Shown here: piece by piece, positions 1,528-20,200 of the stretch
Layout: each line of letters starts with the position of its first letter
How positions within the stretch are numbered: the first letter of the stretch is position 1
Assembly (NCBI GenBank): GCA_029260265.1
Contig: JAJDDO010000023.1
Coordinates: 8,418 to 40,417 of the forward strand
Direction of reading: 5' to 3'
Length of the DNA stretch: 32,000 nt
Source: Phycisphaerales bacterium
Lineage (GTDB): Bacteria > Planctomycetota > Phycisphaerae > Phycisphaerales > UBA1924
Notes under the pieces: model-generated
The model's database searches: none
What the model was told of the DNA's origin: nothing
The model's input: the letters and a program-made list of their open reading frames with translations, nothing else
Translations under genes and position numbers: made by a program

Positions 1528-3156
1528 TTAGAGCATTCGCGAGCGCATCTGCTTCCGCAGTTTTGCCGCGAGACGAGCACCTACAAGCTGTTCCTCGTCG
1601 AGCACTTCGTGTGCCCCGGCCTCATAGAGCTCTGGGACATGCCGGTGGTAACGCCCGCGAGCGATTACATGAACAACGGGCGTGCTGTTGCGGATCTGCT
1701 TGATCACCGCAATCGCCGCGAGCGGGTCGGGGATCGTCACGATGGCGATGTCGGCATGATGCATCCCCAGGTGCTCGAGCACATCCGCGTGCGACGCGTC
1801 CGCCGTGTGCGCATGAAATCCCATCGTGCGTGCTGCCCTGATCGTTGATGGGCTCATGTCCACAACATCCACCCGGATGGGCAGTTTGATCGCTGCCGTG
1901 CCGATCGCCATGCCCGCGGGGCCGAACCCGATGATTACGAGACGCTGACGATGATCGGCCGATTCACCCATATCCAAAGAGGTCCTAGGCGATTTTCCAA
2001 GGCCCAGCATCCGATGAATCCGATTCGATGCGCGCGGCGCGAGCATCACGAGATAGGGCGTAACGAACATTGATAAGATCGTTGCAGAGACGATCAGGGT
2101 GAACTCATCATCGGAGATCAGCCCACCCGTCGCGGCCGCCGCGGCGAGTACGAAGGAGAACTCGCCCACTTGCGCCAGACAGATGCCCGACGCAAGCGAT
2201 GTCCGACTCGGAACGCCGAATGCTTTGAGCACACCCCAGATCACGAGCGCCTTGCCCACGACAATTGCTGCGAGCAACGCGATGACCGAGCCAAAGTGCT
2301 CGACGAACCAAGCAGGGTCACCGAGCATTCCGATCGTTGCGAAGAACAAGGTGACGAGCAGGGTTTTGATCGATGAGACATCCGCACGGATCTGTGTTGC
2401 GAAAGGTGACTCCGCGAGGATCATCCCAGCGACGAATGCGCCCAGTGCGGGGGACAGCCCGAGCTCGTGTGATCCCCACGCGGCACCGATCCCCACGACG
2501 AACGCGAGCAAGATCGGGAGGTCCCGGTTCTGACGAAGCGCGTCCATGCCGAGCACGAGCGGTGCGATCTTGTTGAGCAGGAGAAGCAATACTACGACAA
2601 GCACGCCCGAGAGTGCGAGTGCTTTGAGCATCCCGATGCCCACCTCGCTCATGGAACCCTCGCCTCCGAGCACCGTAACGATCAAGAACAGTGGCACCAC
2701 CGCGATGTCCTGCATGAGCAGGATCCCCAACGCATAGCGCCCGTGGACACTCTCGATCTCTGCGCGAGCGATGAGTAATCGCAGAACACAGGCCGTCGAG
2801 CTCAACGAGACGATCGCGCCGATGGAAACGGATGCAGCGGTCCCCAATCCGAACGCTTTTGCGCCGATGAATCCGACGCCCATTGTGACGAGGATCTGAG
2901 CAGCCCCGCCGCCCAGCGCTGCAACACCGAGACGCTTGAGGCGAGGCCAAGAGAACTCAAGCCCGATTGCAAAGAGTAGGAGTGCTACGCCGAGCTCTGC
3001 AAGGTGCTGGACATGCTCTCCGTCGGATACCAAACCAATCGAGTTGGGTCCGATGAGTGTTCCGGCTGCGAGGTATCCGAGTATTGCGCTCTGTTTCAGT
3101 CGTTCACAGAGCACGCCCAGTACAAGCGCCCCCCCGAGCAGGATGAGGATCTCCAT
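1528..3156 (-). CDS. Kef-type monovalent cation:proton antiporter (CPA2) with a C-terminal TrkA-N/RCK domain
   Basis: 542-aa ORF. The polytopic N-terminal part begins MEILILLGGALVLGVLCERLKQSAILGYLAAGTLIGPNSIGL, as in the KefB/KefC Na_H_exchanger family. The C-terminal Rossmann motif is LVIIGFGPAGMAIG. Confidence 0.9.
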   Translation of the reverse strand: MEILILLGGALVLGVLCERLKQSAILGYLAAGTLIGPNSIGLVSDGEHVQHLAELGVALLLFAIGLEFSWPRLKRLGVAALGGGAAQILVTMGVGFIGAKAFGLGTAASVSIGAIVSLSSTACVLRLLIARAEIESVHGRYALGILLMQDIAVVPLFLIVTVLGGEGSMSEVGIGMLKALALSGVLVVVLLLLLNKIAPLVLGMDALRQNRDLPILLAFVVGIGAAWGSHELGLSPALGAFVAGMILAESPFATQIRADVSSIKTLLVTLFFATIGMLGDPAWFVEHFGSVIALLAAIVVGKALVIWGVLKAFGVPSRTSLASGICLAQVGEFSFVLAAAAATGGLISDDEFTLIVSATILSMFVTPYLVMLAPRASNRIHRMLGLGKSPRTSLDMGESADHRQRLVIIGFGPAGMAIGTAAIKLPIRVDVVDMSPSTIRAARTMGFHAHTADASHADVLEHLGMHHADIAIVTIPDPLAAIAVIKQIRNSTPVVHVIARGRYHRHVPELYEAGAHEVLDEEQLVGARLAAKLRKQMRSRML

Positions 3157-3339: not shown

Positions 3340-5037
3340 ATGAAATCGATCGCCGCTCAGATCATCATCCTTACCCGCCAACGCAGCTCACGCCGGAACC
3401 TCAAGGCATTGGCTAAGTTTATTGTGGCGCTCGTGGTGATGATCGTGGCCTACACATTCATATTCCACCTCATCATGGATTACGAGGACAAGGAGCATAC
3501 CTGGCTGACCGGTTTGTACTGGACCCTCGTGACGATGTCCACAACGGGATTCGGTGATCAGACCTTCGAGAGCGATCTCGGCAAGGTCTTCACCATCGTG
3601 GTCATACTCTCGGGCACTCTTTTCCTGCTCGTGCTGCTCCCGTTTACATTCATCCAGTTTTTCTACGCACCGTGGGTCGAGTCGCAAGCCCAGGCGAGCA
3701 CGCCACAGAGCCTCCCTGAAAACGAGCGAGATCATGTTCTACTCACCCAGCTCGACCCAGTGACCGAAGCGCTCATCAAGAAGCTCGAGCAGTTCGGGCA
3801 TAGATATGTGTTGATCGTAGAGGGGATCGATGAAGCACGCCGATTGCATGATCAGAACTACCGGGTCATGCGTGGCGATCTCGATGACCCAGAAACATAC
3901 ATAGCTGCCCGACTGAATCAGGCATCGATGCTCGTCTCCACACTCAGCGATGCCGCAGATACCACCGTGTGCATCACGGCTCGTGGAGTGACTGATATCA
4001 CGCCTGTGGTGACAACCGTCGAAGACCCTATTTCAACCAAAATCCATGAAATGGCGGGCGCGAGCAACACGATCCGACTCCCCGAGATCATGGGTCATGC
4101 GCTCGCGCGTTGCAGCTCGGGCGGTGACGCGATCACGCATACCGTCGCGACCTTCGGCACTCTGCAGCTCGCTGAGGCAAACGCTTCCAAAACCCCCCTC
4201 GTCGGCAAGACCCTTCGGGAAAACCGATTAGGTGATCTGGGAGTCAGCGTAGCGGGGCTGTGGGAAAGAGGTCAGTTCAAGCCAGCACGACCCGATAGTG
4301 TTGTGAATCCCAACACCGTCCTCATGATCGTTGGATCGGAGCAGCAGCTCTTCAACTATGACGAACACTTCGCAATCTACGCGGTCTCTGGCGAACCCGT
4401 TATACTCATCGGATCCGGACGCATCGGGCAAGCTACCGCCGAGGCGCTTGAGGCGCGCGGCGTGAGCTATCGCGTCATCGAACAAAATGCCCGGCGGGTC
4501 ATAAACTCCGAAATCACGATTGTCGGCAATGCCGCAGACCCGGCAATCCTCGAACAGGCAGGGATCGCTATGACGCCCACCGTCATCATCACCACCAATG
4601 ACGATGACACCAACCTTTATCTGACCCTGCTGTGCCGGCAATCAAATCCCGATGTCGAGATCATCGCACGATGCACCCTCGACAAGCATGTGAAAGCGCT
4701 GCACAAAGCTGGCGCGGACTTCGTTCAATCGTACGCGTCGATTGGCGCATCGAGCATCTTTAATCTGCTTCAGAAAAGTCGGGTGGTTACCGTCACGCAG
4801 GGGCTTGACGTCTTCCGCGTGAATGTCCCCGGGGAAGTCGCCGGCAACACCATCGCCGAGTGCGGTATCCGTGAAAAGACCGGATGCACGATCATCGGCT
4901 ATCACAAAGACGACTCGCTCGAGCCCAATCCACGCCCAGACACAATCCTTGTGGAGGGGCGTGAGATGCTCATGATCGGCGATTGGGAATCCCGCAACAG
5001 CTACTTCAAAGCATACAACATAAAGGGCGGAAACTGA
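3340..5037 (+). CDS. Two-TM potassium channel with tandem RCK (TrkA-N/TrkA-C) domains
   Basis: 565-aa ORF. It has two TM helices flanking a pore loop with the filter-like motif TMSTTGFGD. These are followed by cytoplasmic RCK-like segments (HVLLTQLD...; VILIGSGRIGQATAEALEARG). It is divergent from the Kef gene across a 183-bp spacer. Confidence 0.85.
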   Translation: MKSIAAQIIILTRQRSSRRNLKALAKFIVALVVMIVAYTFIFHLIMDYEDKEHTWLTGLYWTLVTMSTTGFGDQTFESDLGKVFTIVVILSGTLFLLVLLPFTFIQFFYAPWVESQAQASTPQSLPENERDHVLLTQLDPVTEALIKKLEQFGHRYVLIVEGIDEARRLHDQNYRVMRGDLDDPETYIAARLNQASMLVSTLSDAADTTVCITARGVTDITPVVTTVEDPISTKIHEMAGASNTIRLPEIMGHALARCSSGGDAITHTVATFGTLQLAEANASKTPLVGKTLRENRLGDLGVSVAGLWERGQFKPARPDSVVNPNTVLMIVGSEQQLFNYDEHFAIYAVSGEPVILIGSGRIGQATAEALEARGVSYRVIEQNARRVINSEITIVGNAADPAILEQAGIAMTPTVIITTNDDDTNLYLTLLCRQSNPDVEIIARCTLDKHVKALHKAGADFVQSYASIGASSIFNLLQKSRVVTVTQGLDVFRVNVPGEVAGNTIAECGIREKTGCTIIGYHKDDSLEPNPRPDTILVEGREMLMIGDWESRNSYFKAYNIKGGN

Positions 5038-5629: not shown

Positions 5630-6478
5630 TCATTCCACAGGTTCCTCACACCCGGCATGAAACAAATCCAAGTATGCGAAGAGGTCCTGAAGATTGAACA
5701 CATCAAACGGCGCCGCGATATCGGCACCCGGGTCCTGGTCATTCAGCAAAGTGAGGAACGCAAAGATGTCCTCCAGATTGAGGATCCCCTCGTAAGGCGG
5801 CGCGAGGTCTGCCACGCATGAAGTGCGTGTGATGCGGAGTGTCCCGATTCTTGGGGCTCCGGCGAATGGGAACTGATTGGAGAGATTAACGATTGGGATG
5901 TGGGGAGCGATGTTTGAGTTTGATGAGGTGTAGTTTGTGCCGGCATCAGTCCCAGAATCATATGCATCGAGGTCGATGGTAACTTCTTGGATCCATATGC
6001 CGTCTTGCCGGAGGTCGAGATCGTAAATTCCTACGAACCAGTCTGGGCTCGGTGCGATCATCGTGACAAGTGAAAGCAGTGGGTAGTCTCCATCCACTTC
6101 AATTGTCCCCGATGCCGAGCCTGGCGAGAGCGGGATCGATCCGAACAAGAGGAACTGGTCGGCGGTTTCGTTGCTGATGTGTGCAAGAACTTCTGAGCGG
6201 AGCGCGTTGGTGCCTCCTGTTTCAGCCATGATTTCGATTCCATTTGTCGCGATCGCATTGGGAGACCAGAGGCTCAGCTGATCGTTGTGGGTTGCACCGA
6301 CGATGGGGGAGAAGTGTGGATTGTTGGGAAACCCAACGGGATGAGTCACTTCACTCCACTCAGCAATGAACTCGAACTGATAGGTCGCCTGGTCCTGAGC
6401 AATGGTGGTGTTCACGAATCCCGCAGATAATGCAAGCGAGAGCAGATTACGAGCGGCATTCCGAGTACGAATAGTCAT
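5630..6478 (-). CDS. Secreted Spondin_N domain protein with a C-terminal GC-type dockerin-like tail
   Basis: The track ORF runs to 6712, but the internal ATG at 6476-6478 gives a signal peptide, MTIRTRNAARNLLSLALSAGFVNTTIAQDQ. The body (YQFEFIAEWSEVTHP...HFSPIVGATHN...MIAPSPDWFVGI...DAYDSGTD) fits the Spondin_N fold family. The tail has two repeats, NLEDIFAFLTLL and NLQDLFAYLDLF, and ends in AGC. Confidence 0.7.
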   Translation of the reverse strand: MTIRTRNAARNLLSLALSAGFVNTTIAQDQATYQFEFIAEWSEVTHPVGFPNNPHFSPIVGATHNDQLSLWSPNAIATNGIEIMAETGGTNALRSEVLAHISNETADQFLLFGSIPLSPGSASGTIEVDGDYPLLSLVTMIAPSPDWFVGIYDLDLRQDGIWIQEVTIDLDAYDSGTDAGTNYTSSNSNIAPHIPIVNLSNQFPFAGAPRIGTLRITRTSCVADLAPPYEGILNLEDIFAFLTLLNDQDPGADIAAPFDVFNLQDLFAYLDLFHAGCEEPVE

Positions 6479-6734
6479 GAAGATATCCAGTTGGGCGTGT
6501 GATTGATGACACTGGCATTTTAACGGCGATTGTCGTGAAAGTATTCCAGGTATTGAGAATATTCTCTCTGAGTTGTTTGGTGTGCGGATGGCTTGAGCGT
6601 CAGAAACTCGACCACGATCCAGCAGTTGATTCATGCTCCGATGAGGATCCGATTTGAGATCGGCATGGTCGCATTGTTTCGCGTATTGAAGGCAGTGCAG
6701 AATGCCATTCACCAGAGATCTTGTCTACCAGTGT

Positions 6735-6753
6735 TCTGTTGGATTCCAACAGA
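6735..6753. repeat. Perfect 8-bp inverted repeat (hairpin) TCTGTTGG-att-CCAACAGA in a divergent intergenic region
   Basis: Read directly: 6735-6742 is the reverse complement of 6746-6753, with a 3-nt loop. Function unknown. Confidence 0.6.
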
Positions 6754-6757
6754 GTGG

Positions 6758-6783
6758 GGGCGCAATGCATCAATAATGCGCCC
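6758..6783. repeat. Perfect 7-bp inverted repeat GGGCGCA-(12 nt)-TGCGCCC, immediately after the previous hairpin
   Basis: Read directly: 6758-6764 pairs with 6777-6783. The loop contains the palindrome ATGCAT. Function unknown. Confidence 0.55.
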
Positions 6784-6918
6784 ATTCTATGCAATCGGTC
6801 ACATACAGAATGGGCTCATTATTGGGGGAAGCTCGTGGAAACATGTTCGGAACAAGAGTGAAATCGGTTCATTTTTGGAGCAAAAATAATGGGTTTCCAA
6901 TCTGAAATGCTCTGATGC

Positions 6919-6951
6919 GAAGACGGAGTTGATATGCTTCATCTCGTCTTC
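6919..6951 (+). promoter_or_regulatory. 7-bp inverted repeat GAAGACG-(19 nt)-CGTCTTC in the probable 5' leader of the RyR-domain gene
   Basis: Read directly: 6919-6925 pairs with 6945-6951. It lies about 20 nt upstream of the AAGGAG Shine-Dalgarno at 6971-6976. It could be an operator or a leader hairpin. Confidence 0.3.
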
Positions 6952-6982
6952 TGCTTTGAACCTTAGATCGAAGGAGACTCTT

Positions 6983-9511
6983 ATGCCTCAGGCGATTGAG
7001 CAAGTACTTCTGAACGCCCTCGCAGTGGTTGTATTGCTATCGCTGCTCTGGATGCTCTTTGGGGGTTGCTTGCCTTGGTTGCGTCACCGAGCAAGGGCGG
7101 GTAATGGACCAGTGTTGCTGTTCTATGGCTTGCTGGCGTTCATGATGGGGCTCTATGGATGGTCCGCGAATGGAACCGCTGAGGGATACATTGATGCGAT
7201 GTATTTATCAGTGCAGCATCTCTATCTGAATGCGCCCCAAGAAGGGGCAGATCATTGGGCTGTGCAGATATCGAGACTCTTTGCCATCGCATCAGTAGTG
7301 CTGATCGGTGCCGAGGTGATTCGGCGATTGTTTGAGGATTCAATACAGAGTTTGGCGCTCTTGCTGGCACGAAAGCGTGTGGTCATCATCGGGTTCGGCG
7401 ACACGGGTGCAACGCTGTTTCGAGAGATAGTGGAGATGAACAATCTACTTCCCGCCGAGTTCGCTGGAGTTCGCAAAAAACACATCGTTGTCATCGAGCT
7501 TGATGGTGGGAACGAACAGATCGGGACAGCGAAGACTCGTGGCGCGAGCGTGATCGTGGGAAACGGGCTAGATCGTGCAATCCTGAAGCGAGCGGGGGCT
7601 CATAGGGCAAGTTGTGTGTTTTTTACGATGGCATCCGATCAACGGAACACGGATGCCGTGGCAGCTATATCTGAGCTCAGGCGGGAGAGGCAGGTGCAGT
7701 CTCATGTATCGTGGTATGTTCATCTGCGGGACACTGGGTTGGAGCGTGTTTTGGCGCGTGTACTCAGAGTTAAAGGAGAAAGGAAGTGGGTTCATCTTCA
7801 AACTTTTAATGTGCTTGACCTCGCCGCCCGTGATGCTGTAGAGCAATGTTTGACGGATCTGAGGCCGGTCGAGGATCGGCAGGTGTTCCACTGTATCATC
7901 GTGGGCTTTGGCAAAATGGGACAGCTGCTTACACGCAGAATAGCAGAATCCGCACACTTTGAGAATCTGAAGCGGACTCGGATCACCGTTGTGTATTCGG
8001 CGAACGAACAGGATCAAATCTCGGATTTCTGCGGGCGGCACCCGGCAATCTTTGGTGAGCAGTGCGGTCATGATCCCTGGAATCCCAATCCCGATCGAGA
8101 CGAGTGGTCGTATGAGGAATCGGGATCAGGTGTGTCCTTCGTATGTAACGGCGGCTTTGTTCGTGATGGAGCCGCCCCGCGAAGTCGAGTATTCATGGAT
8201 CAGATCATGGCGGTAGCAAAGACCAATGGTGTGCTTCCAACGGTTTTCTTATGCGCCGATTCAAATGAGGATGACTCGGCGGCCTTTGCTCTGCGTACAG
8301 AACTCGATTCAAGGTTCAACGCCAACGATGCCCCCGGCGAACCCGCTCACCCAGTGCATATCTTCTCCTATATCCCAACCCGCCCCCCGATCGCGTACGC
8401 AACGGAGCGCCTGGGGCTGACCATGTTCGGAGCAGTTTCCACGGTGTGCACACTGGAAGCATTGGCGGGAAGTCTTGATCGAAAGCTCGCAGAAGCATTT
8501 GCACGACGATACAACGATCGAATGGCTCAAGAGCAGAGTGAATCAGATGATCTCGATGGGTGGGAGATCGCATCGAATCTTGCTGCAGCACGCCATGTGC
8601 ATGCGAAACTCGCGGTGCTTGGACTCTGTGTCAGTTCAGTTCGAGAGGGTTTCACTCCGACACCCATTGTGGTCGAGGTTTCCCAACAAAATGGAGGCGG
8701 ACCGGATCATTCTTTATCAACAACGCTGGCGAAGATGGAGCATAACCGTTGGATGGCGGAGCGTTTGATGGACGGTTGGCGATTTGGTCCTGGATCAAAC
8801 GAACTTCGGCTCCGTGCGTCCATGCTCGATTGGAGCAAGCTTCCAGAAGCGGAGCGTAAAACGGATCAAGATCAGATCAGCGAAGCCCTTCTTGTTTGCT
8901 CGGATTCAAATCGATTCGTGCTCAGTCAACGCGAGGCAAGGCTCAAGTGGGGCGCAGGACATGCTGCGTTGAGCTTCATGCAGGACCATCGCAAGCAGAG
9001 TTTGGTGATCGGATGGACCGGACCGCACAAGTTGGAGGACAAGGAAAATGGCAGGGATGCGTTGGGTGCTTTAATCGGGACATTGGGGAAATCCCAGCGA
9101 GCGAAGATCGGTGTCGCTGCTGAGATATCAGCGATTGGATCGATTGCAAATGATGTTGATCTGATGGTCATAGATATCCTTGTGGAGCAAGGTCTGCCGT
9201 ATGATTTAGAGTTGCCCATGCATACCCAACAGTCGGATAAGATCGAGAAAATGATCAAGGAAGCCCGGTCTGTGGAGCGGAAGAAACCAACGGTCGAGCA
9301 GGATCAGCAATGCAACCTGTTGGGAGAACAGATCGTGACTGCGTGCGATGTGCTCATTGCGGTATGGGACGGGGAGCCTTCGCGGGAAATGTGCGAAACG
9401 GCAGCGGCTGTTCGATTGGCTCGTTCAAAAGGGAAGCCTGTCATTACCATTTCTCCAGACGACGGATCTGCATGGTATCAAAAACCGGATCTTGGCGGTG
9501 GTGGTGCGTGA
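6983..9511 (+). CDS. Membrane protein: 3 TM / two TrkA-N-like Rossmann domains / RyR (ryanodine-receptor repeat) domain / C-terminal SLOG/LOG-like Rossmannoid domain
   Basis: The track ORF starts at 6929. I prefer the ATG at 6983, which has AAGGAG 6 nt upstream. Three hydrophobic helices sit at the N-terminus. The glycine loops are VVIIGFGDTGATL and CIIVGFGKMGQLL. The RyR signature is LAKMEHNRWMAERLMDGWRFGP...LDWSKLPEAERKTDQDQI. The C-terminal ~160 aa (SLVIGWTGPH...CDVLIAVWDGEPSREMCETAAAVRLARSKGKPVITI) resemble SLOG or nucleoside 2-deoxyribosyltransferase-like folds. Confidence 0.75.
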   Translation: MPQAIEQVLLNALAVVVLLSLLWMLFGGCLPWLRHRARAGNGPVLLFYGLLAFMMGLYGWSANGTAEGYIDAMYLSVQHLYLNAPQEGADHWAVQISRLFAIASVVLIGAEVIRRLFEDSIQSLALLLARKRVVIIGFGDTGATLFREIVEMNNLLPAEFAGVRKKHIVVIELDGGNEQIGTAKTRGASVIVGNGLDRAILKRAGAHRASCVFFTMASDQRNTDAVAAISELRRERQVQSHVSWYVHLRDTGLERVLARVLRVKGERKWVHLQTFNVLDLAARDAVEQCLTDLRPVEDRQVFHCIIVGFGKMGQLLTRRIAESAHFENLKRTRITVVYSANEQDQISDFCGRHPAIFGEQCGHDPWNPNPDRDEWSYEESGSGVSFVCNGGFVRDGAAPRSRVFMDQIMAVAKTNGVLPTVFLCADSNEDDSAAFALRTELDSRFNANDAPGEPAHPVHIFSYIPTRPPIAYATERLGLTMFGAVSTVCTLEALAGSLDRKLAEAFARRYNDRMAQEQSESDDLDGWEIASNLAAARHVHAKLAVLGLCVSSVREGFTPTPIVVEVSQQNGGGPDHSLSTTLAKMEHNRWMAERLMDGWRFGPGSNELRLRASMLDWSKLPEAERKTDQDQISEALLVCSDSNRFVLSQREARLKWGAGHAALSFMQDHRKQSLVIGWTGPHKLEDKENGRDALGALIGTLGKSQRAKIGVAAEISAIGSIANDVDLMVIDILVEQGLPYDLELPMHTQQSDKIEKMIKEARSVERKKPTVEQDQQCNLLGEQIVTACDVLIAVWDGEPSREMCETAAAVRLARSKGKPVITISPDDGSAWYQKPDLGGGGA

Positions 9512-9933
9512 GCGAGGGGCCGCGGTGTACACCACACTCTCGAAAGGAATAGAGTGTATTGCCGACGCGTCCATCAGTTTCCCTTGGTCGTCATTTGAAC
9601 TCGTATGACAGGCGAGTGGTAACGGATTGAGCATGATGCGGGATTGGGTTGATTCCGTTCGAAGAGCACACTGAATAGAAGTGGTGCGCTTCAATACCCA
9701 ATCGGATTTTCGTTCGAGGCGTGATTTCATGGATTGCCTGTCGTTGCTCCTGCTGACCGCCGGAGCACTGGTGTACAGAAGATCTCGGAATCCACGCAAA
9801 AACGCATCAAGGATTTTACATGCCACTCGTTGCTGAATCCGATTTTAAAAGTTGCTATATGTTCAAGATTGGCATCATGCGCATTTTTGTTCTGCGGCTA
9901 AGTGATTCGGCAGAAATGATTTAGGTATGTTTG

Positions 9934-9962
9934 TTGTGTCAAATCTCCTCAGTTGATATACT
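9934..9962 (+). promoter_or_regulatory. Candidate sigma70-like promoter for the TIR-STAND operon (TTGTGT-17 nt-TATACT)
   Basis: The candidate -35 is at 9934-9939 and the -10 at 9957-9962, with a 17-nt spacer. It sits in a stretch that I counted at 36% GC (43 G+C in 9841-9960). It lies about 25 nt upstream of the ATG at 9988, which is preceded by AGGGG. Promoter consensus in this lineage is not well defined. Confidence 0.25.
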
Positions 9963-9987
9963 ATTCAACGCGACAGCTTAGGGGCCA

Positions 9988-12900
9988 ATGAACATGGGGT
10001 CAGTCAACTTTATCCAGCCTGTCTATTGCCCGACATGCGGAGTGGTTGCGCGGGTACCAGTTCCTCAGGTAGGGTCGGTGGTCAGATGTTCACTATGCGC
10101 GTCGCAGATTACGGTGAATGCGGGAGAAGATGTCTTTGTTTCCTACTCTTCATGTGACGACGAACTGGCTCAATGCATTGCTGCTGAGCTTCATAAGAGA
10201 AACATTCGGTTCTGGCTGGCGCCCCATCTTATCAATCATGGAGAAGCATTTCCCGATCGTATTGAGAACGCTCTCCATCAGGCATCCGTAGTCATTGCGT
10301 TGGTAACGCAAGACGCTGTTGAGTCTCCGTGGGTTGGGCATGAACTTTCAATCGCGATCAGCGCCCGCAAGAAGGTTGTTCCGGTATTGTTCGACGATGT
10401 TGTCCTCCCGAGTGGGTGGGGTCTTCGTACTGTAGAATCGCAGCACATCTTGACCAATCGCGATTCTTTGAGTGATGCTTTGGCATCGCTGGCTTCAGAG
10501 GTTGCAAAGCAGTTGGGGCCCCAGGTCGCTCGGGAGTTGCGTGTTCCAGCAGCTCGGCAAATACAGCGGGCGATCACTCCTGTTGGGATTGACCGGAGTC
10601 TGAAACTCTTTGTGGGCCCTCAGCAGTACACCAGCGAGTATCGTGACAAGTTCTTCGGCCGCGAACTCGAACTCGCCGAGCTCATCCGGAGGCTCAAGGA
10701 TGAGCGAATCATTACAGTTGTTGCTCCGTCGGGTGCGGGGAAGAGTTCCTTGCTCGCCGCGGGGCTCGAGCCGGCGATCAAGGGTGAGGGTTGGCAAGTG
10801 ATATCCGGTGCACGCGTTGGACATCCGCCCGATCCCAATCTCCGCTTCCCTTTTAGCTCGGTGTCGAATGTGTTTACATTCTCCGCGATGCGTGGGGTAT
10901 CAGAGGCAACCGAGGGGATTGAAGAGGTCCGCAGTGGATTGACTGCTGGGCGATCAATCGCCGAATGCCTGAGGAGGTATCCGAGGCAATCGAATACGCG
11001 AAGGCTACTGATCCTGGATCAGTTCGAAGAGATATTCACGCAATACCGGCACCGGCATGAGCATCGTGTGGATTTTGGCACCCAGCTTGAGCAAGCTCAA
11101 CGAGAAGATCCCGATCTTACCATCCTGATTGCGATGCGCCAGGAGTATGTCGTTGATCTCAATCACCTCATGGAGTCGGTTCCGAAGGAGTTGAGATCCT
11201 CTCGATTCGAGCTCCGGCGGCTGGGCAACCAAACATTGGAAAGGGTGATCTCAGACATTGCTGCACCCCAAGCGAGATTTGCGAAAGGGGTAGCAAAGCG
11301 GATCATCGATGAGCTGAACACCATTCATGTTTTGACAGAGAATGGGGATGTTGAAACAAAGGCTGGCGAGTACATTGAGCTTGTTCATTTGCAAATTGTG
11401 TGTCAACATCTTTGGGAAACTCTTCGACCGGGGCAGGTCGTAATTGATCACCAAGATCTTGACAACGCGGCAGAGCAATCAGGACAGTTGAACTTTGATA
11501 TGTTCGTCCGCAGCGCTCTTAATCAGTTCTATGCAAAGACTGTTGCGGCGGTTGCAGGAAACCGTGGAAACACCGAGCCACGCGTGGGTGATGATATTGG
11601 GCAGCCTCAACCCGCAGATACTGTAAAAGCCTACCCAGAAGAGCTCATCAGGCTCGGGTGCCGAGGATTCGTCACCAGAGAGCATACACGGAGGCAAATC
11701 CACGAAGAGGGAGGCTATGTCGGAAGGCTTCCGAGTTGGGTGGTTCAGCAACTCGCCGATCGGTACCTTCTAAGGCTCGATACTGCGGGCTCGGTTCGGT
11801 ATTATGAGCTCTCACATGATCTTCTTGCGCCGATCGTCGCGAATCAGAGCGACCCACGGGCGGAGAACTTGCTCTATGCTGCCGAGTTACTCAAGAAACG
11901 ACTTGACGGAGTGTTGCTCAGCAGAAACGGGTCCCTCACAGGATGGTTCGAAGAAGCAGACGAACTGCTCACACAATGCGAAGTTTATCTCGATGCTCCA
12001 GGCTATCTGCTCAAAGATGAGTGTGAGATCCTCTTGCGAGCAAGCATCAAGTCCGGCAAAGAACTTGCACGATGGTCACAGCGTGTTTTCGAAGACGCCC
12101 CTGATCTTTACGAAGTTGTTCTACTTGATGCGATTGATGCGGACCAACCTGAGATCAGAAAGCATGTCATCTGGATGCTCAGGGACTGTCAAGATCCGGA
12201 TGTGGTTCCCAAACTTCTGGAGCTGCTCGTCAATGATGTCTCGCAGCCGGTCCGTTTCGAGGCGGCTCTCGCCCTGTTGAAAATTGATGATGAGCAACTC
12301 TTCGATGAACTCTTCCGCCGAAGCCGGAACGATCCATCAAACCAACAACTCTCCCGTGCTGTTGCGATGCTGCTCGCGTTAGCTGATGAGTTGGCTGAGT
12401 CGAAGTTCAATACTGCATTCGATGCCCTCCGCGGGCATGGGAGATGGAACATCCGAATCATGGCATGGGGAATTCGGATGCGCGAAGCGGTGGCGATTCT
12501 CCCCACAATTCTCTTGGTCACCGCGGTTTTTGCGGGCGGATTCGCGGCTTGCTACAAATGGATACCCGGCAACTACAACTGGGGACTGGTTCAAGCAAGC
12601 CCAGGGGCTTTCATGGGGGTTTTTCATGGGCTCATCGCGGGGACTATCTGGGGCGGTGGGATCTCGGCAGGTGTAGCGATCCATAGGCTTGTGTTCTTCC
12701 AAGCCCGGCATCGTACAGGAGTGCTGCGCCCATTCGGCTCGATCATCGCTGGGGGCGTTGCGGGTATTCTCAGCAGCATAGTGGTCGTGCTGGTCCTCAC
12801 CAATACATATGAACTTCCTTCTTTGGAACGCATGGGGTGGATAGGTTCCAGAGTAATCGAGACAGAAATCGAAGGCGGATCCACAAAGCTTGAAGTCTTT

Positions 12901-13356
12901 GTGCCAAGCCGCCTAGAAACCGAGTTCTACGCCGATTTATTCTTACATACAAGAATGGGTTGGGCACACCTCATCCTTGGCACTTTTCTCGGGATTGGAA
13001 TCGCGGCAACCACAAATAGTGCTCGTTCGAGCCCCGCTTGGGAGCGATTCCTAGATCAACAATCCGCATTCGTTGGACTCAGGCAGATCGCATTGAGTGC
13101 GAAGCAAATTTTCACACTCACGCTCCGTCATCTTTGGCCTGTGTTGATTACACAACTCATCGGCGGTCTGATTGTGTACAACCTGGTTCGCCCTGGGCTC
13201 GGTGCAAAGGGGCGGAACAACTCGCCGTTGTACGGAATTATTGGTGATGCGTCCACACAAGTGATCGGGACCCTTGGTGCGGTCGTTGGCTTAGGCGTTG
13301 TCACGATCATCATCAGGCACGGCATGGTCATCAAGCCGCGGAGCAAAGCCCGATGA
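9988..13356 (+). CDS. Zinc-ribbon / TIR / P-loop STAND NTPase / HEAT-repeat / ~6-TM protein (NLR-like)
   Basis: 1122-aa ORF with these elements in order:
- CPTCG...CSLCAS zinc ribbon (aa 14-38), MJ0042-like.
- TIR-like domain from DVFVSYSS (aa 48 to about 175), with the glutamate of ESPWVGHEL retained (nt 10342-10344).
- Walker A APSGAGKS (nt 10723-10746).
- Walker B LLILDQFEEIF.
- YYELSHDLLAPIV, typical of STAND winged-helix modules.
- HEAT-like repeats (PEIRKHVIWMLRDCQDPDVVPKLLELLVNDVSQPVRFEAALALLKI).
- About six Gly-rich hydrophobic helices (aa 834-1108). Confidence 0.85.
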   Translation: MNMGSVNFIQPVYCPTCGVVARVPVPQVGSVVRCSLCASQITVNAGEDVFVSYSSCDDELAQCIAAELHKRNIRFWLAPHLINHGEAFPDRIENALHQASVVIALVTQDAVESPWVGHELSIAISARKKVVPVLFDDVVLPSGWGLRTVESQHILTNRDSLSDALASLASEVAKQLGPQVARELRVPAARQIQRAITPVGIDRSLKLFVGPQQYTSEYRDKFFGRELELAELIRRLKDERIITVVAPSGAGKSSLLAAGLEPAIKGEGWQVISGARVGHPPDPNLRFPFSSVSNVFTFSAMRGVSEATEGIEEVRSGLTAGRSIAECLRRYPRQSNTRRLLILDQFEEIFTQYRHRHEHRVDFGTQLEQAQREDPDLTILIAMRQEYVVDLNHLMESVPKELRSSRFELRRLGNQTLERVISDIAAPQARFAKGVAKRIIDELNTIHVLTENGDVETKAGEYIELVHLQIVCQHLWETLRPGQVVIDHQDLDNAAEQSGQLNFDMFVRSALNQFYAKTVAAVAGNRGNTEPRVGDDIGQPQPADTVKAYPEELIRLGCRGFVTREHTRRQIHEEGGYVGRLPSWVVQQLADRYLLRLDTAGSVRYYELSHDLLAPIVANQSDPRAENLLYAAELLKKRLDGVLLSRNGSLTGWFEEADELLTQCEVYLDAPGYLLKDECEILLRASIKSGKELARWSQRVFEDAPDLYEVVLLDAIDADQPEIRKHVIWMLRDCQDPDVVPKLLELLVNDVSQPVRFEAALALLKIDDEQLFDELFRRSRNDPSNQQLSRAVAMLLALADELAESKFNTAFDALRGHGRWNIRIMAWGIRMREAVAILPTILLVTAVFAGGFAACYKWIPGNYNWGLVQASPGAFMGVFHGLIAGTIWGGGISAGVAIHRLVFFQARHRTGVLRPFGSIIAGGVAGILSSIVVVLVLTNTYELPSLERMGWIGSRVIETEIEGGSTKLEVFVPSRLETEFYADLFLHTRMGWAHLILGTFLGIGIAATTNSARSSPAWERFLDQQSAFVGLRQIALSAKQIFTLTLRHLWPVLITQLIGGLIVYNLVRPGLGAKGRNNSPLYGIIGDASTQVIGTLGAVVGLGVVTIIIRHGMVIKPRSKAR

Positions 13357-14333
13357 ATCCGCACTCGCGAGACCAACAAACTGGTTCAGTTCACGGTCAC
13401 CTGCCCGAAGAGGTGTTTCGTTTGATTGCCCACAGGCGGACTCTGCAAAGCGATGGAGTTCCGTCGGACGATGGATTCAAACTCGGGCTTGTTGTCGAGG
13501 GCGGTGGGATGCGAGCAGCGGGGTCTGCTGGTGCGGTGGTGGAGTTAGCTGAGCTTGATTGTGTTGATGTGTTCGACTCGGTGTACGCTACCTCTGCTGG
13601 GGTTATGAACGCGGCATATTTCCTGAGCGGGCAGCATCAGATGGGCATCACGATCTACTTTGACGATCTGACCAAGCGCCAGTTTATCAATCGTTTCCGA
13701 TTCTGGAGAATCATGGATTTGGATTGGGTGTTCCGTGAAGTGATTCAGCATTCCAAGCCGCTTGATGTGACCTCCATGCTCGATTCCAGACCAGAGTTTC
13801 ATGTTGCAGCGACTGACTTTGATTCGGGAGAGAGAACACTGATCAATGTGAAAGAGCCAACTGTTAACCCGTTGGCGGCATTAAAGGGAGCGATGGCCAT
13901 CCCGGTCCTCTACAACAAAGCAGTCGAGGTAGATGGGGCGAGACTCTTCGATGGTGGACTGCTCAATCCATTTCCAATAGCCGATGCCATCGATGCAGGT
14001 TGCACGCACATCCTGGTTCTGCTCAGCAGAGGAGCATCTTACCAAAGAGATGCCACGCACCCGTTGATGTCTATGCTGTTTGATTGGTACTTTGCCCGAG
14101 GAGCAAAGTGCCTTCGCGGCATGTTCCGCCGCTACCCTGAGCTCGACAGAGCAGCAAGAGATCTCGCGTTTGCCAGGAAGAGACTTCCAGATGGTGTCCA
14201 TATAGCGACAATTTGCCCACCATCAGATTGCCCGCTGCAGCGGAGTACTGTTGACAAGGAGCGATTGATCGCTGCGAGCCGCTTGTTTGGAAAAGAGATA
14301 AAACATTCGCTGGCGAAGATGTGTGAATCGTGA
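13353..14333 (+). CDS. Patatin-like phospholipase
   Basis: 326-aa ORF. The oxyanion motif is VVEGGGMRAA, the nucleophile elbow is YATSAGV (Ser81), and the catalytic Asp motif is LFDGGLLNPFP. Its ATG overlaps the upstream TGA (ATGA at 13353-13356), with GGAG at 13340-13343. Confidence 0.85.
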   Translation: MNPHSRDQQTGSVHGHLPEEVFRLIAHRRTLQSDGVPSDDGFKLGLVVEGGGMRAAGSAGAVVELAELDCVDVFDSVYATSAGVMNAAYFLSGQHQMGITIYFDDLTKRQFINRFRFWRIMDLDWVFREVIQHSKPLDVTSMLDSRPEFHVAATDFDSGERTLINVKEPTVNPLAALKGAMAIPVLYNKAVEVDGARLFDGGLLNPFPIADAIDAGCTHILVLLSRGASYQRDATHPLMSMLFDWYFARGAKCLRGMFRRYPELDRAARDLAFARKRLPDGVHIATICPPSDCPLQRSTVDKERLIAASRLFGKEIKHSLAKMCES

Positions 14334-14478: not shown

Positions 14479-15081
14479 ATGAGATGTAGTACATGTGGGG
14501 CTTCAGGATCCGGGCGGTTTTGTTCATCGTGTGGTGGCGCTCTTTCCGCCCCATCGGGGTGTGCTGCGTGCGGGCAGGCACTCTCGCCTGCCGATACCTT
14601 TTGTGGCTCTTGTGGTCATCGGGTTGAGGGGCAGCAGGTTTCGCGTGGCGCTGTTCACGCGTCGCCGCCTCCGCGGACTGCGCCGCAGCCAATGCCACGC
14701 CATCAATCTCCGGCGCCCGTTCGGCATGTGCAACCGGCGATCGGTGCGACCCGATCATGGACGGTGGTGGTTACGCTGATTGCCGCGATTCTCCATATAC
14801 TCGGTTCGCTCGTGATCGCGCTCGAGTTTGCGCTCTGGATTGTGAATACTGGTGACGACGGGACCAGGATCATGCTCGGCGTCATGGCCGGTTTGTTGGT
14901 GTTGGGAGCCTTGTTCTCGCTGATTTGTGCGATCGGTATCATGTCGGGCAGCAGGTTCGCTTGGGTTTGTGGGATTCTGGCGTGTGTGTTCGGGATCGTT
15001 GCGGCACTCCCGACGATCATCTTGTTTGTGTTCTTGCTGGTGCCGCCAACACGGGCATGGGTGCGTGCCCGCTCTGGCTAA
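14479..15081 (+). CDS. Double zinc-ribbon membrane protein (N-terminal CxxC x4, Pro-rich linker, 3-4 TM helices)
   Basis: 200-aa ORF. It begins MRCSTCGASGSGRFCSSCGG...CAACGQALSPADTFCGSCGH, then a proline-rich spacer, then hydrophobic helices (VVVTLIAAILHILGSLVIALEFALWIV and others). AAAGGGG lies 7 nt upstream of the ATG. Confidence 0.7.
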   Translation: MRCSTCGASGSGRFCSSCGGALSAPSGCAACGQALSPADTFCGSCGHRVEGQQVSRGAVHASPPPRTAPQPMPRHQSPAPVRHVQPAIGATRSWTVVVTLIAAILHILGSLVIALEFALWIVNTGDDGTRIMLGVMAGLLVLGALFSLICAIGIMSGSRFAWVCGILACVFGIVAALPTIILFVFLLVPPTRAWVRARSG

Positions 15082-16126: not shown

Positions 16127-17290
16127 ATGAATACGGGACCACAGTTCTGCACTCACTGCGGCGCAAGCACTCAGGCGGGCGCTGGATTCTGCACGGCTTG
16201 CGGGTCTCAACTCGGAGGCGCGGTTGCCGCCCAGCCTGCTCATCCTCACCAGCCCCATCTGAGAGCGGTCTATCGCCAAGCAAAGCGTACGAAAGCCAAG
16301 CTGTTTTCCTTCCGTCGTTTCTTCGCTTTTTCCGGTGTTTCACTTCTCGGCATCGGGCTCGCGGACGGATGGAAGGAAACGCTCAATGGTGTTGCTCCAT
16401 TGCACGCGATCCTTGGTGTACCCACTCCGAGCAGCGCCATAGGAGGGAGCATTTCGCTTGCGTTTCACGGGTTTCTGGCTGGAGTCGTGATCGGGCTCAT
16501 CCGATCCCTGTTGTCTGGGCAACTTTTAAAAGTCTTTCAATCGCCGGCCAAGCCAATGATGATGTTTTTCATGTGCGCGATTGTTGCTGTTCTTGCGCCT
16601 GATGCGATGGGTGACGATGGGGGGATTATTGAGCTGGCACGAGGTGCCGCGATTGTGCCAAATCTCACCGTGTTGATCGGGAGTTCTGCAGCCGCGGGCG
16701 CCGGGTTGAGCGCTGGAGTGGGAGTGGTGACGGTTATTGTGAACGGAGCCGTTTCTTCGGTGTCGCGCCCACCGACCGCTCCAAGCTCGGGCAGAACCGG
16801 TAGGGAAACGGGACCAGGAGTGTCAAATCCAGCTCAGAGCCAAAGTCCTCCTGCCCAATCGCCTATAGGCCGAAATGACAACCAAGGAAATGAACAGGAA
16901 GAAGAGGAGCCACCAAACTTCACGCTCGATATTCAGACCGATGGCGGGCGGACCAATATCTTGGCCGATGACCGAGATGAGCTCGGAGTTTCCGCAACCG
17001 TGTTCTGTGACAAGCCAGAAATTGACACAAGCCAGATGGCGGGTTCGATTACCTTTACCGCCGGCGGACCAGCAGTTGATTGGGTCCAACTCGGTCAACG
17101 GATGACGAGCGGGAGCACAGCAATGATTGATGTGAAGGCTAAGCCACCTACGCCAGAGAGCGTGCTTCTTGAATCCGGCGCGATTCTGACTGTTCGACTG
17201 ACGCTCGGGCGGGCGGTTTTTTCTGGTGTTGTGAATCTGACTGTAGAATCGTCTGACTACCACCTTGAGATCGTCTATGACACAGAGTAA
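16127..17290 (+). CDS. Zinc-ribbon / multi-TM / low-complexity linker / C-terminal Ig-like domain protein
   Basis: 387-aa ORF. It begins MNTGPQFCTHCGASTQAGAGFCTACGSQL, followed by several hydrophobic segments. A Q/S/P/E-rich linker follows (SNPAQSQSPPAQSP...NEQEEEEPP). The last ~115 aa look like a beta-sandwich. Confidence 0.7.
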   Translation: MNTGPQFCTHCGASTQAGAGFCTACGSQLGGAVAAQPAHPHQPHLRAVYRQAKRTKAKLFSFRRFFAFSGVSLLGIGLADGWKETLNGVAPLHAILGVPTPSSAIGGSISLAFHGFLAGVVIGLIRSLLSGQLLKVFQSPAKPMMMFFMCAIVAVLAPDAMGDDGGIIELARGAAIVPNLTVLIGSSAAAGAGLSAGVGVVTVIVNGAVSSVSRPPTAPSSGRTGRETGPGVSNPAQSQSPPAQSPIGRNDNQGNEQEEEEPPNFTLDIQTDGGRTNILADDRDELGVSATVFCDKPEIDTSQMAGSITFTAGGPAVDWVQLGQRMTSGSTAMIDVKAKPPTPESVLLESGAILTVRLTLGRAVFSGVVNLTVESSDYHLEIVYDTE

Positions 17291-20200
17291 TCCAGACCGG
17301 GCACCAATGCAATTCCGCATACAGGATGACGGCGGATACGCGCCGCAAAGAATCACGCTGCGCGGATGGAAGGGGAAAGAAGGAACCCGCGAAGAGCCCG
17401 CGAAGTTGAACCGGGCGGAAGTTGAATCCGAGATTCCAGATGTTTTTTCAGCTGTCGATTTCAGCCTGCTCGAGGATGGATCTATCGAAGGGTGGATCGA
17501 ACTCGAGCAGAACTTTGTCATGGCACCGCGGTTCTTTGAAGTGATCAAGGATCCCATTGAAGTGCAGGTGAAGGCATGGATCGAGTCTCCCGACGATGCC
17601 ACAGCGGAACAGCCCGAGATATTGATTAAACAGCAACTCACCGTGAAGATCGAAGATGGATATCAGGTGGTGGTGGATAACCCCGAAGAGGGCTTGCTCG
17701 ATCTTCAGGAGGGGCCAACGGAGATCCCGTTTACACTCAAGATCAGTACACCGAACGCAACACCAGCAGCCAATCTACGGGTGCGGTGTCGTATCTCTGA
17801 AGGAGAGCAGCCGACGCTTCAAGGTGAACTTATGGTCGATGGAGGGACGACGGATGATGCAGGACTCGTATCGATGCAGTATCGAACTCGTGCAAGCGGG
17901 TCAATGCGTGGGGGGGAGGCACCTGGCGTTTCTCTGCAGGTGACACGCGTCAGTGAATCTGCTGATCAAAATGAGATTGAGATCGGGAAAATCACGCTCG
18001 TCGCGGCTCCGCGTGTGACACTCCGAATCGAGAAACCATCGCTAAGCGAAGAGCCCATCAGCGGAGCCGCATTGTCTTACCCGCCAGAGTTGGCCCTTGG
18101 CGGGACATTCCTGCTCAAGCCGAGGGCGGTTATCGAGGTGGAGGGCAAACGGTATGAGAGCGAGAAGGTCATTCGTGATGCGAAGATCTTTGTTGTTGAA
18201 TCGGATACGGATGACCCGCTCGCATGGAGCGAAGAGCATCAAGCATACGAGTTCGTTCTTCGATCTCCGCAAGGCCCAAGCTTGGTGTCCCAGTCAGCGC
18301 CAACACGAGAAGGAGTGATCGGCGAGCCAAAGTCATTCCTCGTAGCGATTGATTCGGGGACTGGGAGCAAGGATCTGAGCGGGGGTGCGATTGGGGCTGC
18401 GCTGGGCGATGTTATGCAAGACTCCAACCGGCTTGTTGGGCGGTATGGACCATTGACGGGACCCGCGGCAGTTGCAGATTTTATTCAAGGGCTCGTCGAT
18501 CGTGCCGCAGAAGCACCCGCTGATACACTCGGAGAAGAGATCAAAGAGTGGCCGCAATGCGCCGCTCGCGCTGCGGAAACATATTCGAGCACAATCAACA
18601 CGGCGGATGCCTTCGAGAGATCGCTCACGCTGCACAAGTATTCGTATGAAATGTTCCTGACCAACTGGATTGGATTTTGCGTCGAGTTGTTCTTTGGATG
18701 GTTCCTCGATGCTGCGGGTTATCTCGCGCGAAGCGGCTCTGAGTTTGCATCAACGGGTGCAGAGAATGTTCGCAAGAGGGTTTCACGCACGGTCGGGGAC
18801 GATGCGGTCGATGGGCTCTCCGCAAGGATCAGAAAGCAGCTTGGCGATGTGCAAGATTTTTTCCGGCGCGAGGTGGATCGGGCGGAGCGAACGATCAATG
18901 AACTGACAAGCAAAATCCAAGATCACCAACGCCAAAGAGTGGACTATGAAGCGGCACGCGAGGCGACGAAAGAAGCCGCGGACGAACTCGCTCAGTTGCA
19001 GCGTGTGTCTGACCCCCTGAAGGAGGCCTTGGAGCAAGGCAAGCAGAGGAAGGGGCGAATCCAGTATATTGAAGATGAGATTGCCCGCCTGGCCGAGGAG
19101 TGGAGGCCGGTCGCCGGTGAACACCTGCGGCTCAAGGATCAGCTCGACCGTGCAAGGCAGAGTCTTTCGGAATATTCTCAGAGTGCAAAGAGAGAGACCC
19201 CCGCGGTCCAGAAGCTCATTGAAGAAGCACAGGCGATTCTCGATGAGGGCGGCCCAAGATTAGAGCGCCTTACGGAGCAAGTGGAGTCCGCCAAGAGAGA
19301 GATCGACGGGCTGACTCGTGAGAGCGAGGAGATCAAAAACAGTCTCGCGACCGATCCACCGCCCTCCGAGCAGGCGGCTGCCGAGGCGATAGAAAAAACA
19401 CGATTGGCCGAGGAGGCGGTGAGATCCAAGGCTCAAGTTGCACATCGGGCTCAGATTCAAGATATCAGGAGCCAAGCTAAGATTGAAGAGCTTGAGCTGC
19501 AGCGAAGCATCGCTCAAATCGAGCGAGATGAGCTGAGCACACTCTACCGCAGGAGCCAAGATTCGTCGAGCGAACTCACCGCAGAGCAAACCAAAGAGTT
19601 GCTCGATGACATGCACAAGAGGCAGACCAAATCCGTTGAGGCCCGCCTCAGGCAGTTCGAGCCGGTGATCGAGCGTCTATCCGGTCAACTCGAAGAACTC
19701 CGATCCAAAATGGTCGAGTTGTTCCATCCTGGTCACAATGTGTTCAAGGATTATTTTACTGCTGTTGAGGAAATTCGCCGCACAAAGCTGCGATTAAGAT
19801 CCGGGGACTCCTTCAGGCTGCCATTAGTATCCGGGCTGCACGGCGAAGCCGGAGAAGACGCGGCCAAGGGCGCGGTCAGCCGAGACGATGCGGCAGAGCA
19901 GCTCGAACAAAGGCTCAAAGAGCTCCAACTTGAAATCCGTAACGCTCAGCAAGGAGCTGCGACTCACACCGGCGGCAAGCTCGTGCCGGAGGACGAGGGG
20001 TATTTTCGGTGGTTCCTTGACAGCGCTGCCTCGGGCGTGTCGATGCTAATTGGGGTGCTTGTCAAAGTGGTGTATTGGACACTGGTTGTTCTTTCGCTTG
20101 GCGGTGTCATGATCCTCTTTGAAGCAGCAAAGGCTATTTTGTCGCGGCTCATGGCGGCAGCCTTTGCAACCTCGTTTATGACAATCCGTTATCTTGCAGA

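Follow-up and report, generated by a model that had tools for sequence, protein, structure and literature searches.

What does a bacterial protein sense, and to what end, when a single chain joins transmembrane (TM) helices, RCK-type Rossmann domains, a RyR domain, and a SLOG domain? The question is raised by P0001, a protein of 842 amino acids (aa) encoded at 6983..9511 (+) in a 32,000-nucleotide stretch of a Phycisphaerales bacterium genome (assembly GCA_029260265.1, contig JAJDDO010000023.1, positions 8,418–40,417), the whole of which is referred to as the window. Here, we show that P0001 belongs to a family composed of a 3-TM module, a tandem of RCK-type domains (the second putative), and a RyR domain of the Repeat12 (R12) type, members of which lie directly beside genes encoding TIR-domain proteins, and that the P0001 clade has added a YpsA-like SLOG domain to this core. 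Given that a channel-like protein family with RyR and SLOG domains adjoins TIR immune-signaling genes, these findings suggest a bacterial counterpart of the control of ryanodine-receptor channels by cyclic ADP-ribose (cADPR). We lean, with moderate confidence, towards a Thoeris-like conflict system based on TIR, in which P0001 would be the membrane effector, gated by the TIR-made signal and sensing it via the RyR domain.

Domain architecture and family

The target gene and its parts are:

6983..9511 (+): P0001, TM-RCK-RCK-RyR-SLOG protein, 842 aa (intact open reading frame, Pfam domain matches, orthologue alignment)
7004..7330 (+): membrane module with TM1 (aa 8–30), TM2 (aa 42–62), and TM3 (aa 92–116) (hydropathy, loop charges)
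7370..7852 (+): RCK1, a TrkA_N Rossmann domain with the motif GFGDTG (Pfam TrkA_N)
7880..8422 (+): putative second RCK-like Rossmann domain with the motif GFGKMG and an insertion (weak Rossmann matches, low-confidence full-length model)
8471..8902 (+): RyR (R12-type) module, Pfam core at aa 576–637 (Pfam RyR, RyR Repeat12 structures in the PDB)
8930..9487 (+): YpsA-like SLOG domain with degenerate ligand loops, aa 650–835 (AlphaFold2 (AF2) model, Foldseek)

The open frame itself spans 6929..9511 (+), and the 842 aa are counted from the ATG at 6983, a start backed by the aligned N-termini of the orthologues. Five orthologues (39–67% identity to P0001) could be aligned over their full length or nearly so, with P0004 being shorter at the N-terminus, and only seven proteins displayed the full or near-full P0001 architecture. 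A promoter and terminator scan of 6600–10100 returned nothing informative.

The TM-RCK-RCK-RyR core, by comparison, is a sizeable, uncharacterized family. A profile search run exhaustively over 1.84 billion cluster representatives recovered 269 of them at E ≤ 1e-30, mostly proteins of 580–780 aa that cover profile positions ~40–640 (i.e., TM, both RCK domains, and RyR) and have no SLOG domain. Among 68 sampled family representatives, Pfam detected TrkA_N in all 68 and RyR in 58. In species-representative genomes, we located 33 core-family loci, mostly in Planctomycetota, with the remainder in Bacteroidota, Verrucomicrobiota, Desulfobacterales, Myxococcota, and one archaeon; almost all core-family genes in these loci stop right after the RyR domain.

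TIR-domain genes beside the family

The gene neighbors of homologues, which the preliminary description had pointed to as a check, gave a clear result. In 32 genome loci from the family without SLOG, the genes within two positions on either side encode TIR_2 more often than any other Pfam family (12 of 94 proteins; DUF4062 accounts for two more), and no transporter family ranked among the common neighbors of these loci. Using a local TIR hidden Markov model (HMM), we detected the domain in 13 of the 99 genes at distance 1–2 and in none of the 167 at distance ≥3 in the same loci (Fisher p = 1.6e-6), and all ten neighbors that were checked passed the TIR_2 gathering score. The other domains of these TIR neighbors all differ (nSTAND1, NB-ARC, Sel1-DUF2610, Pkinase-FGE-sulfatase, SIR2_2, TPR, AAA, or none), leaving TIR as the sole constant partner. 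At nine loci, the TIR gene is on the same strand and ≤500 bp away. The catalytic Glu, taken as the column aligned with that of SARM1, is kept in every full-length TIR domain of the neighboring proteins.

The association extends to the SLOG-fused clade, where a TIR gene lies ≤2.5 kb away in the window and in loci L002, L004, and L008. At L009, a TIR-like gene seen by the local HMM only is situated 973 bp upstream, with an nSTAND1-Ank gene downstream, and at L001, a DUF4062 gene lies 5 kb away.

Some of these loci have further features of their own. Around the orthologue P0003 (L002:1-5314), transposase fragments and an RHS/PT-HINT/Ntox50 toxin occur together with another, small TIR gene, a mixture that would fit an island of conflict genes. 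Two TIR partners are unusual in composition, namely a 1054-aa TIR-Pkinase-FGE_sulfatase-3keto-disaccharide-hydrolase protein (L023:1488-4652) and a 465-aa SIR2_2-TIR protein (L033:12502-13899).

The RyR domain as the likely sensor

The RyR domain named in the preliminary description was borne out, with Pfam RyR scoring 29.6 bits at aa 576–637 (cut-off 27.4). A profile of six orthologues matched Repeat12 of RyR1 and RyR2 in the PDB at E-values from 1.2e-11 to 3.6e-10, and the bacterial structures 3NRT and 6UAG at ~2e-5. RyR domains have recently been shown to bind cADPR isomers, and phage RyR-domain proteins were found in 2026 to bind or destroy cADPR signals; among them, the phage protein RyDEP binds 2′/3′cADPR through contacts at H75, W78, H100, and D117 (PMC13232231). 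H75 and D117 form a catalytic dyad of this glycosidase, and most homologues that keep the dyad bind the ligand without cleaving it (PMC13232231).

We aligned RyDEP (gp78, sequence from MN234187) with the RyR regions of the family and found three of its four ligand contacts to be identical in P0001 (H587/H75, W590/W78, and D628/D117), with R611 in the place of H100. Across the 68 family representatives, H587, W590, and D628 reach at least 90% conservation. Residues H587, W590, R611, and D628 of P0001 are thereby a candidate binding site for a cADPR isomer, as judged by alignment. Since the TIR link also holds for members without SLOG, the RyR domain is the most likely receiver of the TIR product, and we consider it, not SLOG, the likely primary sensor.

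RyDEP and P0001 share a RyR domain with aligned ligand-contact residues (His, Trp, and Asp kept, His100 replaced by Arg), yet they differ in setting. RyDEP is a phage-encoded, soluble, 138-aa anti-defense enzyme or sponge, whereas the RyR domain of P0001 is built into a membrane protein of the host, with RCK domains alongside it and TIR genes adjoining, which implies a sensor role rather than evasion. A tblastn search with the RyR region against a phage collection gave no match. Eukaryotic ryanodine receptors and the PKD-RyR channels of oomycetes likewise carry a RyR domain on a cation-channel-like protein, and the cADPR link is suggestive; however, our profile search detected no similarity to the ryanodine receptors beyond the RyR domain, and the pore and overall architecture appear unrelated.

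The C-terminal SLOG domain

Searches of the last ~190 aa by sequence against Pfam and the PDB returned weak matches only (Nuc_deoxyrib_tr, E 0.04, and YtoQ), so structure prediction was needed. A profile search with the domain yielded 425 relatives, mostly standalone proteins of ~157 aa, with the consensus GVTGHR...SSLAxGADQLFA...AVWDGEPARGxGGTADVV. The AF2 model of aa 650–835, built on an alignment of 67 sequences, reached a predicted local distance difference test (pLDDT) of 92 and a predicted template modeling score of 0.89, and its Foldseek neighbors in the PDB were YpsA (2nx2, E 9e-6), ShosA (8zva), the MoCo carrier protein (2iz5), DprA (4ljk), and TM1055 (1rcu), all of which we take to be SLOG-superfamily folds. 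Because this confident model matches YpsA, ShosA, the MoCo carrier protein, and DprA, the predicted fold of the C-terminal domain is SLOG, in agreement with the SLOG/LOG-like assignment made earlier, for which a Foldseek search had been named as the check. The superfamily was reportedly classified by Burroughs et al. in 2015 into, among others, YpsA/DUF1273, YAcAr, and DprA types. The P0001 domain shares its fold with such proteins by Foldseek and nevertheless represents a distinct subfamily, as the relatives match the Pfam models YAcAr (17), YpsA (12), Nuc_deoxyrib_tr (10), and DprA/DNA_processg_A (10) weakly, with none of these listed matches at gathering score.

Within this subfamily, the P0001 domain is itself aberrant. 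The motifs IGWTGPH and ETAAAV quoted in the preliminary description are indeed present, but they are degenerate forms of the family motifs TGHR, LAxGAD, and PARGxGGT, which are kept in orthologues P0002–P0006 as regards TGHR and the glycine loops. The substitutions in P0001 (H681P, G724D, A725V, G802E, G804C, and G805E) fall in the glycine loops and the TGHR motif. Over 29 columns that are each at least 85% conserved in the 67 sequences, P0001 deviates at 10, the most of any sequence (runner-up, 6). In the SLOG domain, P0001 is 46% identical to its orthologues, which share 65% with one another; no comparable lag is seen for the other domains (ratios 0.89–1.11). A hidden frameshift behind the odd loops was ruled out, as no GPGGT occurs in the alternative frames, and the changes are therefore substitutions.

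The same SLOG subfamily recurs with the core in several arrangements. It is fused C-terminally in P0001–P0006, P0250, and P0351 and N-terminally (aa ~12–187) in P0341 and P0363, with the different position implying independent fusions, and it is encoded by a separate gene adjoining the core gene at L010, L014, L025, L070, and L075. Where the core is lacking, SLOG genes adjoin TIR genes at L057, L064, L071, and L072, and TIR-SLOG operons occur. Through such fusions and gene adjacencies, this SLOG subfamily, the RCK-RyR core, and TIR are linked in a small network.

A few SLOG loci stand apart. P0395, at 298 aa, appears to be either a soluble protein with RyR and SLOG domains or a fragment. An operon at L049:5001-7805 encodes SLOG (215 aa), SLATT_1 (212 aa), and TIR (394 aa) proteins, a SLOG-TIR tie independent of the RCK-RyR core. 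In L046–L048, a standalone SLOG gene (158 aa, L046:5001-5477) shares 4 bp with a gene for a caspase-like protease (Peptidase_C14), and a Trypsin_2 gene lies close by; the SLOG and caspase-like pair appears to be a further conflict module linked to SLOG.

RCK domains and the membrane module

Two TrkA-N-like Rossmann domains had been proposed from the motifs GFGDTG and GFGKMG. The former lies within a Pfam TrkA_N match (aa 133–241, E 3.7e-13, 50.3 bits, cut-off 23.8) and holds firmly, while for the latter (aa ~305–343) Pfam returned sub-threshold Rossmann matches only, complemented by Foldseek of a full-length AF2 model. This model was built on six sequences and is poor (mean pLDDT 56.6); at that confidence, it matched GsuK best (E 1.8e-8), as well as TrkA, KtrA, CASTOR, MthK, and the Slo1 gating rings, with root-mean-square deviations of 8–18 Å. 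The reading of the two Rossmann domains as a tandem RCK assembly is tentatively supported by these low-confidence predictions.

The three N-terminal TM helices noted beforehand are confirmed by hydropathy. The loop at 31–41 is positively charged and therefore predicted to be inside, the segment at 63–91 is acidic and therefore predicted to be outside, and TM3 runs into the cytoplasmic RCK domains. Between TM2 and TM3, the segment at aa 66–90 (YIDAMYLSVQHLYLNAPQE) consists of a conserved short helix and a loop, which we regard as a candidate re-entrant pore loop. Residues Y74, Q78, L82, and N83 are conserved across the 68 family representatives; the loop reads YLNAPQE in P0001, and the family consensus is Y..Q...LN. 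AF2 secondary structure placed helices at 41–61, 68–82, and 91–116, so that hydropathy, loop charges, and predicted secondary structure agree with a 2TM/P-loop topology, model confidence there being low (pLDDT 41–55). The predicted layout of outer helix, loop, inner helix, and RCK corresponds to that of MthK and GsuK, with P0001 having one extra N-terminal TM helix. P0001 may, on this basis, form a pore.

Gene neighborhood in the window

The other genes around P0001 are:

1528-3156 (−): Kef-type CPA2 antiporter with a TrkA_N domain
3340-5037 (+): K+ channel with canonical Ion_trans_2 and 2xTrkA_N/TrkA_C
5630-6712 (−): Spondin_N-domain protein (E 5.6e-43), divergent gene immediately upstream of the target
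9988..13356 (+): TIR_2-nSTAND1-HEAT protein with a C-terminal multi-TM region (Pfam TIR_2 2.7e-19, nSTAND1 1.1e-33, HEAT_2 2e-10)
13353..14333 (+): patatin-like phospholipase (Pfam Patatin 6.2e-18)
14479-15081 and 16127-17290: zinc-ribbon (DZR/Zn_Ribbon_1) proteins, downstream of the patatin gene
17265-20990: 1241-aa protein without a Pfam match

The TIR-nSTAND1-HEAT gene starts 477 bp downstream of the target gene. Its TIR domain lies at about 10132–10434 with the catalytic Glu column conserved, and the protein is the presumed signal generator. The ATG of the patatin gene overlaps the stop codon of the TIR-STAND gene (ATGA at 13353–13356), the two being translationally coupled, and a patatin gene likewise follows the distant homologue P0007. 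The two zinc-ribbon genes and the gene for the 1241-aa protein may share a conflict island with the target. Upstream, the Kef antiporter and RCK K+ channel genes form a divergent pair 2–5 kb from the target; neither turned up at the other homologue loci for which genes were listed. The C-terminal ~290 aa of the TIR-nSTAND1-HEAT protein contain hydrophobic helices (aa ~829–859, 915–943, 1049–1067, and 1088–1117), unusual for a STAND NTPase.

Proposed function and alternative explanations

A ligand-gated membrane effector or channel regulator, rather than a housekeeping transporter, had been proposed in the preliminary description. With SLOG structural neighbors found and the homologues lying outside any conserved K+ transport operon, the former is the better reading of P0001. 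In the mechanism we propose, the TIR-STAND neighbor would sense an invader and oligomerize, whereupon its TIR domain would use NAD+ to make a signal derived from ADP-ribose, a cADPR isomer being the likeliest. This signal would dock in the RyR-domain pocket (H587, W590, R611, and D628); in orthologues with intact loops, the SLOG domain may provide a second docking site. Ligand binding would then be relayed to the RCK gating assembly, and a pore of TM2, the re-entrant loop, and TM3 would open, with the ensuing ion leak depolarizing the cell and leading to arrest or death. Since the P0001 SLOG has lost its glycine-rich loops, P0001 itself would have to sense through its RyR domain, perhaps aided by the RCK domains.

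Several findings weigh against this proposal. On the genomic side, ~60% of the genome loci have no TIR gene within two genes (several of these contigs are short), the 477-bp gap between the target and the TIR gene leaves co-transcription as an assumption, and the target gene has no PADLOC match. TIR-STAND proteins tend to be interpreted as stand-alone NADase effectors, not as producers of a signal. On the sensor side, the P0001 SLOG domain is without the conserved glycine-rich ligand loops, displaying IANDVD, PSREMCET, and TGPH against LAxGAD, PARGxGGT, and TGHR. As for the pore, Ion_trans_2 matched none of the 68 family members at E ≤ 0.01 in a Pfam scan, no selectivity filter (T-V-G-Y-G or a variant) is present, YLNAPQE being no known one, and the TM region of the full-length model has a pLDDT of 41–55. 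An hhalign comparison of the family N-terminus with a set of K-channel pores (KcsA, MthK, NaK, and the window's own K+ channel) was in register, though at 5% probability (P = 0.007), and was rejected as evidence of homology on account of that probability.

Among other explanations, P0001 could be a signal-buffering regulator, whose RyR domain, and perhaps SLOG, sequesters or hydrolyzes TIR-made cADPR isomers at the membrane, thereby setting an activation threshold or protecting the cell from its own TIR proteins, with the killing left to another gene, such as that of the patatin. The patatin gene is translationally coupled to the TIR-STAND gene and adjoins P0007, as such a division of labor would have it, yet it is absent from most TIR-linked loci. 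Some SLOG relatives (LOG and the deoxyribosyltransferases) are hydrolases, which would suit the destruction of a signal. H587 and D628 also correspond to H75/D117, the catalytic dyad of RyDEP, but RyDEP homologues with the dyad mostly bind without cleaving (PMC13232231). Moreover, a sponge or hydrolase has no need for three TM helices or a tandem RCK assembly, given as present in 68 of 68 representatives, and we regard buffering as unlikely. P0001 might also act as an NAD(H)-sensing channel, one whose TrkA_N/RCK Rossmann domains bind NAD+/NADH and which responds to NAD+ depletion by the neighboring TIR NADase, with no dedicated signal involved. The GxGxxG motif of RCK1 is intact and followed by an acidic residue after β2 (VVIELD), and the closest structural matches include GsuK, KtrA, and TrkA, which are nucleotide-regulated; TIR-STAND proteins are, in addition, commonly NAD+-depleting, as for Avs-type TIRs (10.64898/2025.12.03.692087). 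Direct NAD(H) sensing nonetheless leaves unexplained both the near-universal RyR domain with its conserved cADPR-contact residues and the repeated recruitment of SLOG, and we consider it quite unlikely.

A role in ordinary K+ homeostasis, with P0001 as an RCK-regulated K+ channel or transporter regulator and the TIR neighbor as coincidence, appears very improbable. It would account for the TrkA_N domain and for the Kef-type antiporter and RCK K+ channel 2–5 kb upstream. These K+ genes were, however, not seen in the other listed loci, for which reason the K+ operon hypothesis was rejected, and no transporter family is found among the common neighbors. The lack of a K+ selectivity filter and of an Ion_trans_2 match, together with a TIR enrichment that is strong and position-specific, likewise argue against it.

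The membrane effector sensing a TIR-made signal via RyR thus described can be extended to the whole family, an extension that we offer tentatively, as possible and no more than that. In it, TIR-made cADPR isomers would gate the TM-RCK-RyR proteins, as prokaryotic cation channels, via RyR (R12). Such gating would be a bacterial forerunner or analogue of cADPR-ryanodine-receptor signaling and the first case in bacteria in which a STAND/TIR sensor passes its signal on to a distinct channel effector, comparable to plant TNLs and helper-NLR channels, with SLOG as a second, interchangeable nucleotide sensor. If P0001 acts as proposed, the family would constitute an unrecognized effector class in TIR/Thoeris-type immunity, common in Planctomycetota and scattered in other phyla, and would give the RyR domain a host-side role that complements the 2026 phage finding. 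Large TIR-STAND proteins would then be suggested as signal generators for a separate effector, beyond NAD+ depletion. It would also offer a simple bacterial model for the old question of whether cADPR-type molecules act directly on a channel via an R12-type RyR domain.

Comparison with known systems

In Thoeris systems, a TIR protein (ThsB) acts together with a ligand-activated effector, which in type I is the SIR2-SLOG protein ThsA, and Yirmiya et al. (2025) list 29 predicted types, including type X with the "ion channel" effector ThsK, while "SLOG and 4TM" and "SLOG Patatin" are named as candidates only (10.64898/2025.12.03.692087). The likeness to P0001 lies in the gene pairing, in which a gene for a TIR domain that retains the catalytic Glu adjoins one whose product combines nucleotide-sensor domains with a membrane-bound or toxic module. 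With ThsA, P0001 shares the SLOG domain but not SIR2, and with ThsK, a channel-like output as proposed here. The systems differ in that many partner TIRs of the P0001 family are large STAND, kinase, or repeat proteins as opposed to the small ThsB. In the text and tables of that source (Table S1 in part), "RyR" and "TrkA" had no matches, and an effector of 3TM, tandem RCK, and RyR with or without SLOG was absent. The TIR neighbor in the window matched the PADLOC models ThsB and Thoeris type III ThcB4 only below their cut-offs, and we found no description of a TIR and RCK-RyR gene pair in the literature.

Tandem-RCK channels and gating rings (GsuK, MthK, TrkA/KtrA, CASTOR/POLLUX, and Slo1) resemble P0001 in having TM segments followed by cytoplasmic RCK domains and are the best fold matches of its low-confidence full-length model. 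P0001 differs from them in lacking a TVGYG-type filter and an Ion_trans_2 match, and we know of no RyR or SLOG additions in these channel families.

The identification of P0001 as a type X ThsK was considered and rejected for want of significant similarity (best BLASTP E 2.6). The ThsK used, from the Vibrio sp. JCM 19052 locus (L044:3369-3995), is 208 aa long with the P-loop TLTYGG. The second-best BLASTP pairing, non-significant at E 3.4, set its NAIYLSVANAF against DAMYLSVQHLY at aa 71–81 of P0001; the ThsK segment is the pore helix just before TLTYGG, and the pairing is in register with the proposed re-entrant loop of P0001.

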